In this document: positions 32,210 through 40,917 of the stretch, piece after piece | How the letters are laid out: the number at the start of each line of letters is the position of its first letter | Position numbering within the stretch: position 1 is the stretch's first letter | IMG/VR virus record: IMGVR_UViG_3300012942_000011 | Coordinates: 1-46,784 of that record | Source: a virus | Lineage: Duplodnaviria > Caudoviricetes | DNA: 46,784 nt | Direction: 5' to 3' (one strand) | The notes under the pieces: generated by a model | Seen by the model: the letters and a program-made list of their open reading frames with translations, nothing else | Database searches by the model: none | What the model was told of the DNA's origin: nothing | Program-made: the position numbers and the translations under genes

Positions 32210-32974
32210 ATGCCTTACAACATCAACGACGAACTCGAAGAAGCTATGAAAGAATTTGGGAATAGTGGAGGAGGTTCCTCTACTTTCTACAAGATTCAAG
32301 AAGGGAATCAGAATGTAGTTCGCGTACTTACGGAAGGCAAGACCTATGCAACTCTCCGCATGGGACAAGGCGAATACCGTACTCTTTACGGAAAGGAAAA
32401 AGGCGACCCGCTTCGCTCTCGTCTCGATTGGGACCACAACAAGACAGGTCGTGTCCTCTATCCATTCTCGGACCGGGAGGAAGAGACTGAAGCTCGTCCG
32501 TCTATTCGCTCTGTGTATTACGTGATTGACCGCAACGACGGTAAGGTTAAGCAAGCTGAGTTCCCGTACTCAGTTGCAAAGCAGCTCGGAGAACTTCAGA
32601 ACAATCCTGATTACTTCTTCGAAGAGATGCCAATGCCTTACGATGTTCGTATCACTTACGACAAGAGTAAGTCTCCTGCATCGATGTACAAGGTAGATGT
32701 GAAGCCAAATGGCGCAGCACCTACTAAGGAACAGCTTGAGGTCCTCGAAAAGCGTATGGAGAAATACTCTCCGGAAGCTGTCGTTGAGGAAAAGAAGAAG
32801 CGTCAGATGGAAGAGGATATGAAGCGCGGTATCTACGTTGACGAAGATGAGCGTGCTAGCCTCGAAAAGGAGTTCAACGATGGTATGAAAGCTCAGATGG
32901 CTAAGCAGTCCTCGGAAGAACCTGTTATTCAGTATCCTGCTGACGAGATAAATCCGGAAGACATTCCGTTCTAA
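32210..32974 (+). CDS. Single-stranded DNA-binding protein (gp32-like)
   Basis: FYKIQEGNQNVVRVL...YYVIDRNDGKVK...YDVRIT...YKV and acidic tail ending EDIPF. Confidence 0.75.
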   Translation: MPYNINDELEEAMKEFGNSGGGSSTFYKIQEGNQNVVRVLTEGKTYATLRMGQGEYRTLYGKEKGDPLRSRLDWDHNKTGRVLYPFSDREEETEARPSIRSVYYVIDRNDGKVKQAEFPYSVAKQLGELQNNPDYFFEEMPMPYDVRITYDKSKSPASMYKVDVKPNGAAPTKEQLEVLEKRMEKYSPEAVVEEKKKRQMEEDMKRGIYVDEDERASLEKEFNDGMKAQMAKQSSEEPVIQYPADEINPEDIPF

Positions 32975-33481: not shown

Positions 33482-33515
33482 TTGAGTTCCGGGTTCACAT
33501 CTTATATTATGTGAA
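33461..33515 (+). promoter_or_regulatory. Promoter with forward DnaA-like box and operator-like inverted repeat
   Basis: TTATCCGCA (33461), TTGAGT-17nt-TATTAT, TTCACAT/ATGTGAA flanking the -10. Confidence 0.55.
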
Positions 33516-33594
33516 TGCCGCAGTTAGTAAATAGCCTAAAGAGCGTTTTTACAGAAAGTGCTTTTCAGGCTATCTGCGGCAAACTTATAGCAAC

Positions 33595-33626
33595 AAAGAG
33601 GTCTAGCTTCGGCTAGGCCTTTTTGT
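33595..33626. terminator. Intrinsic terminator, possibly bidirectional
   Basis: AAAGAGGTCTAGC-TTCG-GCTAGGCCTTTTT. Confidence 0.75.
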
Positions 33627-33948
33627 GTATACCGACCAGTTACCGCGCCCTGGCCACCAAGCGGCAGTTCACGACCACCTGAGCAAAGTCGTGGAAAAAT
33701 ACTGCTGGGTCAGGTTGGCGAATCCTACAGCCTCCAGTGGATGCCGATTAAATGTAGGAACTTAGCCTCGATGTCTCGGACAGCATTCCGAGTCCTCCGC
33801 GGGTAAGGCCTCTGCAACGTAGCCTAGACTCCTGAGCGTTGTATGCACACAGCAAGGCCTGAGAATGGGACCTTGAACTGATAGTCTGGGAGTAAGAATA
33901 TGCGGAGAGACAACCGCGATAAAATATTCGAGGTCAAAGCTGGTGTAC
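33627..33948 (+). ncRNA. Candidate structured RNA C with pseudoknot
   Basis: No ORF of 60 aa or more in any frame; at least 8 stems; loop CCTAGACT 33823-30 complementary to AGTCTGGG 33883-90. Confidence 0.6.
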
Positions 33949-34009
33949 GGCTTTTCCTCATCTATTCCTCCTGGGTAAGATTTTTAATCCAGGTTTTTAT
34001 TTATGTAAG

Positions 34010-34052
34010 TGTGTATAACTCAGTTTGAGATTTAACGTATATTCTATATAAT
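34010..34052 (+). promoter_or_regulatory. DnaA-box promoter P2 (leaderless transcript predicted)
   Basis: TGTGTATAA-6nt-TTGAGA-16nt-TATAAT, ATG 6 nt later. Confidence 0.75.
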
Positions 34053-34058
34053 AATTAT

Positions 34059-34367
34059 ATGGATACTATCGGTTCAATACTGGAACGGTACCAGAAAGCG
34101 AAGTCAGAAGAGAAACCTGCACCTCACGAAAAAGCAGCAGCAGTAAATGAAATCATTTCATTACTTGGAGAGTCAAAAGCATACGATTACAAATACTGGC
34201 TTGTTCGTGTAGGTAGTGCCTCGTACTCAACTGTTTTAGGAATAGTGAAAGCTGCTAAAGATATGCCTCGTGAGATGCGTGGAGGGTATATCACAAATCA
34301 ACTAAAGCCATACGCAGTTAAAAAGCCTAGAAAGAAAAAAGATGCTAGACCAACAGATTCGAAATAG
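34059..34367 (+). CDS. Hypothetical protein (possible replication/initiation accessory)
   Basis: First gene after the large non-coding region; function unknown. Confidence 0.7.
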   Translation: MDTIGSILERYQKAKSEEKPAPHEKAAAVNEIISLLGESKAYDYKYWLVRVGSASYSTVLGIVKAAKDMPREMRGGYITNQLKPYAVKKPRKKKDARPTDSK

Positions 34368-36321: not shown

Positions 36322-36364
36322 TGTGGATAACTAAGTTTGAGGAATCGCACCGGCCGGTTATAAT
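36322..36364 (+). promoter_or_regulatory. DnaA-box promoter P3
   Basis: TGTGGATAA-6nt-TTGAGG-16nt-TATAAT. Confidence 0.78.
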
Positions 36365-36370
36365 TATCGA

Positions 36371-36710
36371 AGAGGTTAGGAAACACAGACCAACGACTTT
36401 CTGGTACTAGCTGGAAATATCGTCAGGTACTTGCAACACCGAGAAACCGACCGGACGCATTTAAGTCCCACTCTCGCGCTGACGCATTACTGCCTAACTT
36501 CTAGAACCTGTTCTTTGAAATCTCAGTCGGGGAAAGTTACTTGTCTCTCCCCCGCGACCATCATATTACTGATAGTGGCATAAGCTAGAGGAAACCGTCC
36601 TTGCAAGGACCTAGTACAGAGGCGTGTCAGTCAGTCTACGAACTCAATCCTTCGCGCGGGAGATACTATTGTAGAGCTAAGGTAATGTGGCCGGGGAGAG
36701 GCAAGCAACT
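36371..36710 (+). ncRNA. Candidate structured leader RNA B of the que/dpdA operon
   Basis: Stems 36371-80/36493-502, 36535-52/36693-710, 36562-70/36681-89; palindrome 36597-610. Confidence 0.6.
36509..36520 (+). promoter_or_regulatory. boxA-like antitermination element
   Basis: TGTTCTTTGAAA, single-stranded between two structured domains. Confidence 0.55.
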
Positions 36711-36727
36711 GACCTCAGGAGGATTGT

Positions 36728-37441
36728 ATGATTAAGGTGAACGAAATCTTCGGCCCGACAGTTCAGGGCGAAGGCAAGTCCGCCGGGCGTCCAGTTGCTT
36801 TCCTGCGACTGGCTCTCTGCAACTTGCACTGCATCTGGTGTGATACTCCGCATACTTGGAACTGGGTTGGTACGCAATTCGCTCATCCCGAAAAGTTCCA
36901 GTTCGAGAACGAAGTACACGCTATGACGGACGATGAAATATTCGACCGTCTCACGCAGACCGGAATGGATGCTCTCGTCATTTCTGGCGGCGAGCCTCTA
37001 ATCCAGCAGAAACAACTCGTTCCACTCCTTCGGAAACTGAAAGCCAGCAACTGGTGGGTCGAAATCGAGACCAACGGGACTATTCCTCCTCGTGAGGACC
37101 TCGTTCAACTCATCGACCAAATCAACTGCTCGCCGAAGCTTTCCCATTCGCTCGACCCACTGAAACTTCGCATTCGGGAAACCGCGCTTCATGCGCTGGC
37201 TAATGAACCGAAAGTGAACTTTAAGTTCGTCGTACGGAATAACGAAGACATCGACGAAGCACTCGGAATCATCTCGCAGTACGGTCTTGACCGGCGTGAG
37301 GTGCGACTGATGCCCGAATGTCGGACTAAGGAGGAGCTACTCGCCAAGGAGCTTTGGCTCCAAAAAGAGTGCGCGGTACGAGGAATGATTTACTGCACTC
37401 GCCTTTCCATTCTCCAGGCTGGGACAGAGCGCGGTGTTTGA
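36728..37441 (+). CDS. queE: 7-carboxy-7-deazaguanine synthase (radical SAM)
   Basis: EIFGPTVQGEG, CNLHCIWCDT (CxxxCxxC), SGGEP, IETNGT, SPKL. Confidence 0.95.
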   Translation: MIKVNEIFGPTVQGEGKSAGRPVAFLRLALCNLHCIWCDTPHTWNWVGTQFAHPEKFQFENEVHAMTDDEIFDRLTQTGMDALVISGGEPLIQQKQLVPLLRKLKASNWWVEIETNGTIPPREDLVQLIDQINCSPKLSHSLDPLKLRIRETALHALANEPKVNFKFVVRNNEDIDEALGIISQYGLDRREVRLMPECRTKEELLAKELWLQKECAVRGMIYCTRLSILQAGTERGV

Positions 37442-37443
37442 TT

Positions 37444-37479
37444 GGATAGGCGGTCCTAAACCCGCCGCCTATCCTTTTT
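37444..37479 (+). terminator. Intrinsic terminator between queE and queD
   Basis: GGATAGGCGG-loop-CCGCCTATCC-TTTTT. Confidence 0.8.
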
Positions 37480-37497
37480 GTACTTAAAACTTTACTT

Positions 37498-37935
37498 ATG
37501 CTTGTAACGAAACAGATAGAAATCGACATGGGGCATCGCGTCCCGAATCACAAATCAAAGTGTCGAAGTCCTCACGGACACCGCTACAAGATTGAAGTAG
37601 GAGTTGACGATAAGCTCATTTCTGACAACAAAGCATCTGATTACGCGATGGTTATCGATTTTGGAGACCTCAAGGAAATCATGATGCAAGAGATTGATGC
37701 TGTGTACGACCATTCGTATACTCTCTGGGAGAAAGATGAAGATAAAGCTCTATGGATGGCTTGGAAAGACCGGGGGTACAAAGTCAATCTTACTCAAGAG
37801 CCTCCAACAGCAGAGTTCCTCGCAGTCTTGTGGTATCACATCTTGAAAGAGAAGCTCGAAGAGCGCAAGATTAAAATCGCACACGTTACCGTGTGGGAGA
37901 CACCTACTAGCACAGCAACTTACACAGGCGTATGA
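37498..37935 (+). CDS. queD: 6-carboxytetrahydropterin synthase
   Basis: GHR...KCRSPHGHRY, MVIDFGDLK, PTAE, VWETPTS. Confidence 0.95.
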   Translation: MLVTKQIEIDMGHRVPNHKSKCRSPHGHRYKIEVGVDDKLISDNKASDYAMVIDFGDLKEIMMQEIDAVYDHSYTLWEKDEDKALWMAWKDRGYKVNLTQEPPTAEFLAVLWYHILKEKLEERKIKIAHVTVWETPTSTATYTGV

Positions 37936-38090
37936 TATACATTCTTTCTCTAGCAGCCGGTCTTATTCTCGGAGCAATCTTTGCTTTCTTTAAGCTACCG
38001 ATTCCAGCACCTAGTACTCTTGCTGGCGTTGTAGGAATTGCAGGTGTTACAATAGGTTATCTGCTCGTAATGCGTAGCCCACTATGGTAG
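37932..38090 (+). CDS. XapX/DUF1427-like small membrane protein (52 aa, not in ORF track)
   Basis: MIYILSLAAGLILGAIFAFFKLPIPAPSTLAGVVGIAGVTIGYLL; overlaps both neighbours. Confidence 0.8.
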   Translation: MIYILSLAAGLILGAIFAFFKLPIPAPSTLAGVVGIAGVTIGYLLVMRSPLW

Positions 38091-38659
38091 CAATTGTCAA
38101 AGAATACACTGTAGAGGATACTGTCCGTCAGATGCTTTTTGCGATGGGCGTGGACCTTGAAGATGAGAACTTCAAAGATACTCCTAAGCGTGTAGCAAAA
38201 GCATTCGGAGAGATTCTCAAGTGGCAAGACGACAACGACCGCAAGAACTTCCTACTGTCTATCAAAGACAAATCGTTCCCTACTTCTTATGGCGGCATTG
38301 TTGCACAGAAACGCATCAAAGCCGTAAGCATGTGTCCTCATCACATGCAACCTATCCACTACGAAATCGATATCGGTTACGTAGCGGAAGACCGAGCACT
38401 CGGTCTATCGAAAATCACTCGTATCGCTGAAGCTTTAGCGGCACGAATGGTATTACAAGAGACACTCACTGATGACATTGCGGATTTCTTCGAGAAGGAA
38501 ATTAACACGAAAGGCGTGATTGTTATCGTTCGTGGTAAGCACGGATGTATGACAAATCGCGGAGTCAAGCAAGAAATTGTAACGACTACCTCTTCTGTTC
38601 GTGGACTCTTTGAAGACGATGCGCCTCTCCGGCAGGAGTTTCTAACACTTAATTCTTAA
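38084..38659 (+). CDS. folE: GTP cyclohydrolase I
   Basis: DTPKRVAK, SMCPHH, GLSKITR, LQETLT, HGCMTNRGV. Confidence 0.95.
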   Translation: MVAIVKEYTVEDTVRQMLFAMGVDLEDENFKDTPKRVAKAFGEILKWQDDNDRKNFLLSIKDKSFPTSYGGIVAQKRIKAVSMCPHHMQPIHYEIDIGYVAEDRALGLSKITRIAEALAARMVLQETLTDDIADFFEKEINTKGVIVIVRGKHGCMTNRGVKQEIVTTTSSVRGLFEDDAPLRQEFLTLNS

Positions 38660-38662
38660 TGT

Positions 38663-39367
38663 ATGTCTAAGACTGTCGTTGTAGTATCGGGCGGAATGGA
38701 TTCAGTTACTCTCTTGCACAAAGTTGCTAAGGAGGTTGGTTCTGATAACGTTAAAGCTATTTCATTTGACTACGGTCAGGTTCACAAGAAGGAACTCCAG
38801 ATGGCTGCTGAGCAGTGCTGGCGCCTCGGCATTGACCACAAAGTAGTTGATATCACGAATCTTAACGAGCTTCTTCCAAGTGCCCTTACAGGAACTGAGG
38901 AAGTACCGCAAGGCCATTACGAGAGCGAGAGCATGAAGAAGACTGTCGTGCCGTTCCGTAACTCGATTATGAGTACAATTGCTCTCGGATATGCAGCAGG
39001 ACTCGGTTACGATAGAATTGCTCTCGGTGTTCATTCCGGCGACCATTATATCTATCCTGACTGCCGTCCTGAGTTTATTGCTGCCCTTTCAGAGCTTGCT
39101 CGCCTCGGAGACTTCAATCCGATTGATGTGTATACTCCTTACCTTAACGCTGATAAGACAGCTATTATTGCGGAAGGTATAGAACTTGGAGTTGATTACT
39201 CAAAGACCTGGACTTCGTATTCAGGCGGTGATGTACCTGATTTCAAGACAGGCTCATCTGTAGAGCGCACACAAGCCTTTATCGCAAATGGTATCAAGGA
39301 CCCACTCTACACCGATGAACAGTGGGAGGAGGCTAAGGCATACGCTGAAAGCGTAGAGAAGGAGTAG
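38663..39367 (+). CDS. queC: 7-cyano-7-deazaguanine synthase
   Basis: SGGMDS, FDYGQ, VPFRN, YPDCRPEF; the usual C-terminal Zn Cys cluster is replaced (TWTSY...GSSVER). Confidence 0.93.
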   Translation: MSKTVVVVSGGMDSVTLLHKVAKEVGSDNVKAISFDYGQVHKKELQMAAEQCWRLGIDHKVVDITNLNELLPSALTGTEEVPQGHYESESMKKTVVPFRNSIMSTIALGYAAGLGYDRIALGVHSGDHYIYPDCRPEFIAALSELARLGDFNPIDVYTPYLNADKTAIIAEGIELGVDYSKTWTSYSGGDVPDFKTGSSVERTQAFIANGIKDPLYTDEQWEEAKAYAESVEKE

Positions 39368-39368
39368 T

Positions 39369-39554
39369 ATGGATGACGGACTTGATAAAGGCCACATGAA
39401 TCTGCTCGTAGACCTAGAATTGGTCCTTGCAGAAGCACGCGCAAAAGAGTATCACGATTTCGAGAACGAGACCTATGCTACTCCAAAGATGGAGTTAGTT
39501 CGTAAGCTCGAAAGCATCATTAACAACACGAAGAACGGTAAATACGATAACTAG
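39369..39554 (+). CDS. Hypothetical phage protein
   Basis: EYHDFENETYATPKMELV; TAG-T-ATG junction. Confidence 0.7.
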   Translation: MDDGLDKGHMNLLVDLELVLAEARAKEYHDFENETYATPKMELVRKLESIINNTKNGKYDN

Positions 39555-39557
39555 CCT

Positions 39558-40046
39558 ATGTCTGATACATCAAGTCTAACAAAGCTCGGTTCTGGTAAGA
39601 CCGATTACGACTTCTCGAAAGGACCTTCGCAAGAGATTCTAGAGACCTTCGATAATCAGCATCCAGACCAGTGCTACCTCGTTCCTTTCACTATGGAGCG
39701 TGATGAGTTTACGTCACTTTGCCCGAAGACCGGACAGCCTGACCAAGCTCGAATGGAAGTAGTCTATGTACCGCGCAAGAAGATGGTTGAATCGAAGTCA
39801 CTCAAGCTCTACTTCTTCTCGTTCCGCAACACAGGCGAGTTCCATGAAGATGTGGTAAATCGTATCGCAAAAGACCTCGTAGCAGTGCTACAACCGGCAT
39901 ATCTCCGCGTGTATGGCGACTTTGCCCCTCGTGGTGGGCTTGCTATTAAGCCAATGGTTGAGCATATGGACGACGAGGCTCACAACAACGAAGAACAGCG
40001 CGAATATATCTTTGGACTCGTAAGTCGTTTCGACGCAAAGAAATAG
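39558..40046 (+). CDS. queF: preQ0 reductase (unimodular QueF)
   Basis: EFTSLCPKTGQPD, QueF motif ESKSLKLY, FHE, PRGG. Confidence 0.93.
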   Translation: MSDTSSLTKLGSGKTDYDFSKGPSQEILETFDNQHPDQCYLVPFTMERDEFTSLCPKTGQPDQARMEVVYVPRKKMVESKSLKLYFFSFRNTGEFHEDVVNRIAKDLVAVLQPAYLRVYGDFAPRGGLAIKPMVEHMDDEAHNNEEQREYIFGLVSRFDAKK

Positions 40047-40047
40047 C

Positions 40048-40917
40048 ATGAACCTGTACTTCGCTTCAAGTCCTAGTAGGATTCATATTGGTGTCCTCAA
40101 AGAGAACAAGGCGAAGAACTTGCTATTCTCTTACGCGTTTATCAAGAGGCCCGAAAAGCTGATTGAACTAATCGTAGGAGACGGTACGAGACTCCCAGAA
40201 AGAATTATTCTGGACTCAGGTGCCTTCTCAGTTTGGTCTAAAGGTGATACCGTATCACTTGATGACTACGCTGAGTTCTGTGTCAGGTTTAAGGAGCTAC
40301 TCCCGCCTGGCATAGAGCTGAACGTAGTGAACTTGGATGTGCTTCCAGGTAAGTGGGGATTCGTCCCTACAGCTGAACAGATTGCAGAGAGTGCTGAGAA
40401 AGGCTGGCAAAATATGCTACACCTAGAAAGCCTCGGCTTGAAAGTGATTCATGTGTTCCATCAACACGAAGACTTTGCTATCCTTGAACGCCTAGCAAAG
40501 CATTCCGATTACATTGGAATCTCGCCAGCAAACGATGTCTCAATCCAGCAGAAGCTCGATTGGCTTAACAAAGTATTCTTATATCTCAAAGATGGAACTA
40601 AAACTCATGGTTTCGCCGTTACTAGCCATAAGCAGTTACTCGGATACCCATTCTATTCAGTTGATAGCAGTTCTTGGGTTACTCCTGCTCGCTTTGGCCG
40701 TATTGCTGTCTTTACTGATAGGTACGAAATAAAAACCTTCCCGTATAAGTCTCAGTCCGATGTAGAGAAGTACTGGCCGTACATTTCTAACATCGGCATG
40801 GCGAAGATTGCACACCCTCGTTGGGAGGACCGTGTATCTATTGCTATTCGTGCGTACCAGAAACTCGAAGAGGTTGCTACGAAGATATGGGCTTCTAGAG
40901 GAGTTACTTGGACTTAG
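40048..40917 (+). CDS. dpdA: TGT-fold 7-deazaguanine DNA transglycosylase (phage DpdA-like)
   Basis: ILDSGAFS, NLDVL, HVFH, THGFA, SVDSSSW; terminal gene of the que cluster. Confidence 0.82.
   Translation: MNLYFASSPSRIHIGVLKENKAKNLLFSYAFIKRPEKLIELIVGDGTRLPERIILDSGAFSVWSKGDTVSLDDYAEFCVRFKELLPPGIELNVVNLDVLPGKWGFVPTAEQIAESAEKGWQNMLHLESLGLKVIHVFHQHEDFAILERLAKHSDYIGISPANDVSIQQKLDWLNKVFLYLKDGTKTHGFAVTSHKQLLGYPFYSVDSSSWVTPARFGRIAVFTDRYEIKTFPYKSQSDVEKYWPYISNIGMAKIAHPRWEDRVSIAIRAYQKLEEVATKIWASRGVTWT

Follow-up and report, generated by a model that had tools for sequence, protein, structure and literature searches.

A gap in a phage genome and what it may encode

The region around positions 33627 to 33948 of a phage genome raises the question of whether a gap between genes encodes a structured RNA and, if so, what kind of RNA this is. 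The window, by which we mean the whole stretch of 46,784 nucleotides that was analyzed, constitutes a complete phage record (46.8 kb) bearing direct terminal repeats, and its + strand holds all identifiable genes (terminase, portal, capsid, endolysin, a preQ0/deazaguanine pathway, and three tRNAs). We infer that the host belongs to the Patescibacteria (CPR), since the homolog-bearing genomes described below fall in a phylum whose genomes measure 0.4-2 Mb. In addition, of the three Atlas clusters that best match the protein encoded next to the element, one consists mostly of Ca. Falkowiibacteriota. The initial annotation had described the element as free of open reading frames and GC-richer than its flanks. 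We found that its GC content is indeed 0.53, versus 0.41 and 0.28 for the flanks, and that 33482-34058 holds no ORF of at least 60 aa, although three ORFs of 42-46 aa do overlap the element. The element lies outside any tRNA cluster, with the nearest tRNA 1.8 kb away. In order, the region consists of a promoter-like site, a 66-nt hairpin, a terminator-like hairpin, the RNA, a hairpin with a U-run, and a new promoter:

33482..33510, + strand: sigma-70-like promoter TTGAGT-17-TATTAT (9 of 12 consensus matches only; the sole candidate found 5' of the RNA)
33516..33581, + strand: long leader hairpin, a separate small RNA or leader (-31.6 kcal/mol; weak, sub-threshold Rfam matches)
33593..33626, + strand: terminator-like hairpin with a UUCG loop and U-run, immediately 5' of the RNA (-23.6 kcal/mol; listed by the terminator scan on the - strand only)
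33970..33999, + strand: terminator-like hairpin and U-run 3' of the RNA (-8.4 kcal/mol; uncalled by the terminator scan)
34010..34052, + strand: DnaA-box-like word and strong promoter TTGAGA-16-TATAAT (11 of 12 match), which gives the next gene, 34059-34367, a promoter candidate of its own

Lying behind the first promoter-like site, the stretch 33516-33626 might yield a small RNA of its own, ~110 nt long, or else act as a leader that gates the large RNA.

Five members of an uncatalogued RNA family

Including the window, we found five distinct full members, with two homologs in phages (L111 and L120) and two in serine-recombinase islands of small-genome bacteria (L162 and L165). L111 was found at a locus fetched via the SSB-like neighbor (E 1.8e-4 among 118 loci), and L124 and L132 are the same as L111; L120, to which L122 is identical in sequence, was found by a pattern of the shared module described below. 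A covariance model of that module, M1, retrieved L162 (E 3.5e-9), and a later model holding only its helix P2 retrieved L165 (E 8e-7). The shared core of ~240 nt corresponds to 33698-33934 in the window and measures 233-275 nt among the members, which are pairwise 46-57% identical by global alignment without a shuffled control; a whole-length MAFFT alignment was too poor for use. Three foreign partial homologs on run contigs match only 33702-33753 or 33868-33916, at ~80-86%, and then continue with similar motifs. The cores share no reading frame (the longest are 21, 42, 30, 76, and 35 aa), and no gene neighbor recurs in all of the members. L165 contains a tag-like reading frame, which was set aside because the other members lack it. 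At about 1410-1455 on the minus strand of L165, a hydrophobic reading frame of ~20 codons runs through the linker and hairpin P5; the others are without it.

In the sequences searched, the family is rare, with three genomes (G001, G559, and G592) across overlapping samples of 151 to 401 and two other phages from viral scans. Model and pattern searches returned two real matches of three, two of five, and one of two in samples of 151 genomes, two of three among 401, and two of four among 301; the real ones were always G001, G559, and G592, while the others lay in coding sequence or lacked P2 and were rejected. A GTDB pattern scan gave one real match of six, blastn gave one of seven in 401 genomes (genome G159 was not used for any conclusion), and blastn against annotated phages and plasmids gave none. 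Scans built on earlier pseudoknot or 3' motifs yielded 95, 1, and 5 matches, none of them real, and one metagenome scan returned only the window's own sequence (L125) and one chance match. M1 was absent from 21 records of distantly related phages (one chance match) and from 3 further ones, the 3' hairpin was absent from 5 records of distantly related phages, and the SSB-like protein family was not found in the 401 genomes. A weak match in L114 was dropped as antisense to a gene. Another rejected match, L166 1178-1693, lies inside an endonuclease-like ORF, seemingly within a 23S rRNA gene intron as judged by eye.

The initial annotation could not match the element to tmRNA, RNase P, 6S, or group I/II intron cores, and this agrees with our searches: no Rfam family matched within 33628-33948, even when E values up to 10 were allowed, and none matched over the four homologs, ARAGORN was blank over the element, and the whole window compared with Rfam 15 at the gathering threshold yielded three tRNAs only. 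Together with base pairs that covary across the homologs, as the initial annotation had proposed checking, these findings support its suggestion of a possibly new large ncRNA. Judged by sequence comparison, this is a real, uncatalogued family of folded elements whose pairs are kept through compensating changes, and its carriers are likely the phages and islands of ultra-small (CPR) bacteria.

A triple-crossing module is the most conserved part

The most conserved part of the element is a set of crossing helices at 33702-33759 that was absent from the initial annotation. The module and the sequence 5' of it comprise the following features:

33698..33759, + strand: module M1, three crossing helix sets (comparative pairing, shuffles)
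33702-09 with 33733-40, + strand: helix Pa of M1, together with Pd, 33712-14 with 33731-33
33715-19 with 33743-47, + strand: helix P1 of M1, core invariant
33723-29 with 33753-59, + strand: helix P2 of M1, best supported
33627..33700, + strand: 5' extension, with a predicted closing stem to 33938-33949, a hairpin at 33669-33694, and arms at 33649-55 and 33662-68

M1 is ~62 nt long in the window and 62-66 nt among the members, and the segments GGCGAA, GGAUGCC, and UUAAA are near-invariant across all five. Its helix sets (Pa with Pd, P1, and P2) mutually cross, and two of them covary. In four members, 92% of 88 cells are paired, and both partners have changed in 8 of 22 pairs; none of 500 shuffles reached 92% and slid controls reached at most 51%, in a test that leans in the module's favor, the structure having been derived from the sequences on which it was scored. 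P2 carries five covarying pairs of seven. Since the core of P1 is invariant, with one U-U, covariation does not prove this helix, which is plausible. Two checks are freer of circularity. The M1 sequence pattern matches 18 sites, and of these the five members form P2 helices of 6-7 bp and Pa helices of 7-9 bp, while P2 reaches at most 3 bp at the other 13. In L165, which was found later by a model that contained only P2, Pa measures 9 bp and the 3' domain is complete.

The initial annotation had drawn a unit of ~320 nt. The conserved unit is smaller, at ~240 nt, with the first 70 nt forming an extension whose form is unseen in the four full homologs. Two outer 5' stems of the earlier reading compete with one conserved crossing helix: the arms 33649-55 and 33662-68 of the window can pair with 33701-33714 in place of Pa and Pd, and this pairing beats Pa/Pd by 8.6 kcal/mol in nested folding, which ignores pseudoknots. 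On this modeling, the window copy would either have traded Pa for the upstream arm or switch between the two. In L120, a long, nearly perfect hairpin at 2368-2480 forms the 5' extension, replacing the three-stem arm of the window.

The 3' domain is closed by a stem in every member

Downstream of M1, the following features make up the second domain:

33765..33934, + strand: 3' domain with closing stem 33765-71 with 33928-34 (stem in five of five members)
33775..33792, + strand: hairpin P4 (analogs in L165 and L162)
33813..33843, + strand: big-loop hairpin P5, whose loop pairs downstream (comparative)
33855..33873, + strand: hairpin P6 with a bulged A (MFE fold; like design by eye in L165 and two run contigs)
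33883..33893, + strand: pseudoknot strand, pairing as 33887-93 with loop 33828-34 (position-matched) or as 33883-90 with 33823-30
33897..33928, + strand: terminal hairpin P7, with an outer stem, a 3' bulge, an inner GCGG/CCGC stem, and the loop AGAGACAA

The closing stem, hand-picked in each case, has 6-8 bp of differing sequence and starts within 10 nt after P2 in all five members. Loop pairings of 5-8 bp, unrelated in sequence from one member to another, are likewise present in all five, and the pairing strand lies just 5' of the terminal hairpin. The initial annotation had pointed to an 8-bp complementarity between CCTAGACT and AGTCTGGG, which is present (33823-30 with 33883-90) but is one of two possible registers that share one loop in the window; since the pairing involves the 3' part of the loop in three of four homologs, the position-matched register is 33828-34 with 33887-93. 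The A-rich loops of P7 follow the family consensus AGARAMAA, with AGAGACAA in the window and AGAAACAA, AGAGAAAA, and AGAAAAAA in other members, while the loop of L162 has 12 nt. Six of ten P7 pairs changed on both sides, and a P7 model run over 375 kb recovers the four sequences it was trained on and nothing else, the next best match having an E of 0.66.

A descriptor of the whole 3' arrangement, written after the sequences were seen, is met by four of the five members and by none of 2000 shuffles of each; when any 8-nt loop was allowed, 5, 0, 5, and 10 of 150 shuffles of the four passing members also matched. L162 fails both this descriptor and the P7 model. Over all hand-picked helices, 289 of 291 cells pair, a count that selection keeps from being a test.

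Where the earlier fold and the conserved fold part

All ten stems listed in the initial annotation were found at their positions, as was the triplicate CCTGAG (33678, 33831, and 33858), a repetition that is not conserved among the homologs compared. Two of these stems, CTCCGCG/TGCGGAG and AGGCCT/AGGCCT, clash with the homolog-kept hairpins P7 and P6. Since nested energies do not separate the fold with these stems from the P7/P6 version (-100.2 and -100.6), the homologs decide: a P7-compatible hairpin corresponding to 33897-33928 is found in four of four, one with a longer loop, and a P6-type hairpin corresponding to 33855-33873 in L165 and the two run contigs, while the best analog of CTCCGCG/TGCGGAG has 6, 5, 4, and 2 bp in the four homologs. 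By this sequence comparison, pairing of the CTCCGCG/TGCGGAG type may still occur as an alternative to P7.

The many G-U pairs had been taken to favor RNA from the + strand. In agreement with this, helix Pa contains an invariant U-G pair in four of four aligned members, 40 of the 291 hand-picked helix cells are G-U, and the folding z-score is -1.30 on the + strand versus -0.11 on the - strand. On the other hand, stability beyond that of shuffled sequence did not hold up, as 10 of 100 shuffles were equally stable. Folding z-scores were -0.74 for L165 and -1.73 for L162, values that carry no information on pseudoknots, and -4.76 for L120, where the stretch folded includes the terminator and the long upstream hairpin. 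Altogether, the element is real and its listed features are present, while the conserved fold differs in part from the one first drawn and its stability is unremarkable.

Genomic context and expression signals

The neighboring or downstream genes encode a 102-aa protein (window and L120), a DUF2828 protein (L111), or serine recombinases (L162 and L165). The L111 core begins 7 nt 3' of a TATAAT box, with no same-strand ORF of at least 60 aa before the next promoter-like site, which argues for a stand-alone layout. The same layout is indicated in the window, where the RNA precedes a hairpin and U-run and a separate promoter serves the next gene, and by the L162 and L165 copies, which also end in a hairpin with four U. 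These two copies are placed in an operon-like manner after small ORFs and 5' of the serine recombinase genes. The L120 copy lies between a peptidase gene and the 102-aa gene. Since a strong terminator-like hairpin separates the RNA from its sole upstream promoter in the window, and a terminator-like hairpin likewise precedes the L120 copy, read-through or an unseen promoter is needed there. Our scans found no promoters near the L162 and L165 copies and called none of the copies' 3' hairpins as terminators, and L120 and L111 have no clear 3' terminator. Runs labeled RNA-Seq, whose contigs cover most of an 8-kb stretch, were flagged as probably DNA and thus carry no information on expression. 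The island of L165 also bears a LOOT RNA (RF03000; 2636-2755, 87.9 bits) on the opposite strand, an orphan RNA that is separate, ~1 kb off, and without overlap with the core.

Comparison with known RNAs and rival explanations

HDV-like ribozymes form a nested double pseudoknot with crossing P1 and P2 helices, and they carry P1.1, P4, and a catalytic C in J4/2. In M1, the covarying P2 crosses a predicted P1 in the same order, and the A-rich strand 3' of this P1 likewise recalls HDV-like and pistol ribozymes; a 5-bp helix followed by a UUAAA strand is shared with pistol. We consider it unlikely that M1 by itself or the core as a whole is a new ribozyme acting on its own transcript by cutting or processing it. 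It is similarly doubtful that M1 represents a new class of small catalytic RNA, with three mutually crossing helices and no known catalytic signature, that processes its carriers' transcripts and is switched by the 5' arm of the window. M1 forms the 5' edge of the core and is preceded by sequence that differs among the members, which would suit such an activity, and its length, pseudoknots, and near-invariant core fit the profile for picking ribozyme candidates in PMC10085705. However, only AAA or UUAAA joins the 3' strands of P1 and P2 in all five members, which leaves no room for an HDV-like P4 helix or catalytic C, and P1.1 was not found. M1 also lacks the pistol P2/P3 junction, its third helix pairs with upstream rather than downstream sequence, and it sits inside a 240-nt RNA, whose 3' domain, or a likeness of it, is carried by all five members. 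In L111, the predicted transcript starts with the module itself, so there is no upstream part to remove. Moreover, ten motifs of like profile (PMC10085705) and three terminator-followed motifs (PMC5737381) showed no cleavage.

A cis-acting transcription switch (attenuator, antiterminator, or riboswitch) for the element's downstream genes is an explanation to which we give limited credence. It would account for the placement of L162 and L165, which have a small ORF on one side and, on the other, a hairpin with U-run that precedes a serine recombinase gene, for the mutually exclusive 5' arm and Pa of the window, and for a 5-7 bp alternative to P7 in three members, and the pocket-like conserved core suits ligand binding. 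On the other hand, this alternative keeps just 4 bp in L120 and 2 bp in L111, the downstream genes have no function in common, the next gene in the window carries its own 11-of-12 promoter, and no conserved helix overlapping a 3' terminator was found. We regard as quite improbable a role in replication of the element, whether as an RNA primer, an ARRPOF/GEBRO-like RNA, or a single-stranded DNA structure. A ColE1-type primer RNA forms a hybrid that persists at an origin immediately downstream of it. The element is followed by an AT-rich stretch that contains a DnaA-box-like word, and in three phages it lies close to a recombination/SSB-like block and to a gene encoding a protein of 91-102 aa; among named proteins, the next protein most resembles RepB-C and DnaB_2 (0.76-0.78, a lead only). 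Yet the box word recurs at other intergenic or gene-start sites of the phage, with exact copies at four and, with one mismatch allowed, 13 versus 9.0 by chance, which is not above expectation. A G-rich/C-rich hybrid-forming tract was not seen, frequent G-U pairs and A-rich loops suit RNA better than a DNA structure, and two of the five members lie in recombinase islands without such a gene nearby. The replication primer proposed in the initial annotation thus receives little support, the downstream protein being without a confident replication assignment, although ARRPOF and GEBRO are motifs of 223-349 nt tied to plasmid replication (PMC5737381).

That the element is a chance fold, or belongs in strongly diverged form to a known family (RNase P RNA, tmRNA, or a group I/II intron), is very improbable and already largely refuted. 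The z-score of only -1.3 and short likenesses of the window copy to RNase P and group I consensus words speak for it. However, these words are lost in the homologs, the five members have no Rfam match at E up to 1-10, and covariation and the controls exclude chance. Bacterial RNase P RNA has a P4 pseudoknot with conserved flanking regions; the 9-bp complementarity 33685-93 with 33946-54 lies outside the conserved core and has no bulge. Group I introns have a conserved P7 guanosine site with a bulge and a P4-P6 domain, and here the P7-like pairing varies freely in sequence among the members. The Domain V hairpin of group II introns and HYER is missing from the helix lists. With regard to tmRNA, ARAGORN detected none, and neither a tRNA-like domain nor a tag reading frame shared by the cores was found.

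A stand-alone RNA as the preferred reading

The reading that we tentatively favor, at somewhat less than even confidence, is that the conserved, covarying two-domain fold functions as a stand-alone RNA, whose compact tertiary shape would bind a partner. Its basis is the secondary structure shared by five divergent members that have neither a reading frame nor a neighbor gene in common. Transcription would proceed from the + strand and stop near 33999, where the U-run lies. Tertiary contacts or a binding surface may be formed by the invariant M1 core together with the A-rich loop of P7, while the varying loop-strand pseudoknots could staple the fold within one molecule or between copies, in the manner of the kissing loops of ROOL, GOLLD, and ARRPOF. 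As partner we envisage either a protein, of the host or of the element, or additional copies of the RNA, and the beneficiary would presumably be the mobile element; the extra 5' arm of the window, a predicted competitor of Pa, could gate the folding of M1. This functional reading is a proposal built on five full members only, with hand-picked helices and a post hoc descriptor.

ARRPOF (255 nt), ROOL, and GOLLD are alike with the element in being large, pseudoknotted, rich in helices, and borne on mobile elements or prophages, with loop-loop pairings. The element is multi-helix, pseudoknotted, covarying, non-coding, and carried by mobile elements, as ornate mobile-element RNAs are. ARRPOF matches it in size, whereas ROOL and GOLLD are much longer, and the Rfam models of all three gave no match. 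The likeness to ornate RNAs is one of size, knots, and setting, but the element belongs to no Rfam family. According to PMC12990946, GOLLD has a conserved 3' domain and a variable 5' domain. The terminator-followed motifs in PMC5737381 resemble the element in ribozyme-like conservation, in being followed by a terminator, and in having no consistent 5' UTR position, but the element has no Rfam match and no single protein domain is tied to its five loci. A description of the motif was absent from the literature searched, including the available parts of PMC5737381, PMC10085705, and PMC12990946 and of bioRxiv 10.64898/2026.07.01.735769 and 10.64898/2026.10.21.760802, and PMC10690425 gave no match in its listing or in six searched supplement files. 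Other supplements, or the cluster database of bioRxiv 10.64898/2026.10.21.760802, may hold it as an unnamed candidate. From these comparisons, the previously uncatalogued family of structured RNAs with an unusual triple-crossing module is real.

Known large, highly structured bacterial RNAs are few, and most are ribozymes or unsolved. The family would add a compact member with an unusual 62-nt triple-crossing module in five natural variants, and its sharing by phages and integrative islands of a very-small-genome lineage implies strong space pressure on keeping it. If true, any of the leading outcomes (a new ribozyme, a new switch, or a new RNA scaffold) would be a new RNA class.

Other observations in the window

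A 254-aa protein encoded at 32210-32974 has an acidic EDIPF-type tail typical of single-strand DNA-binding proteins, with 22 relatives and no Pfam family. Between 31900 and 32209, a GC-rich gap of ~300 nt lies 3' of a tRNA-Thr and a promoter-like site and contains complementary GC-rich words by eye; it is possibly another structured RNA. Words of the TGTGGATAA type, which we take to be DnaA-box-like, recur with an extended shared flank at intergenic or gene-start positions (31863, 34010, 36322, 40919, 43820, and 5075). A gap of ~400 nt at 36330-36727, without a long + strand ORF and without Rfam matches at the gathering threshold, is a candidate leader of the preQ0 operon that starts with queE. 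This complete preQ0/deazaguanine cluster (36728-40917; QueE, QueD, FolE, QueC, QueF, and a queuine tRNA-ribosyltransferase-like protein) likely serves DNA modification against restriction.
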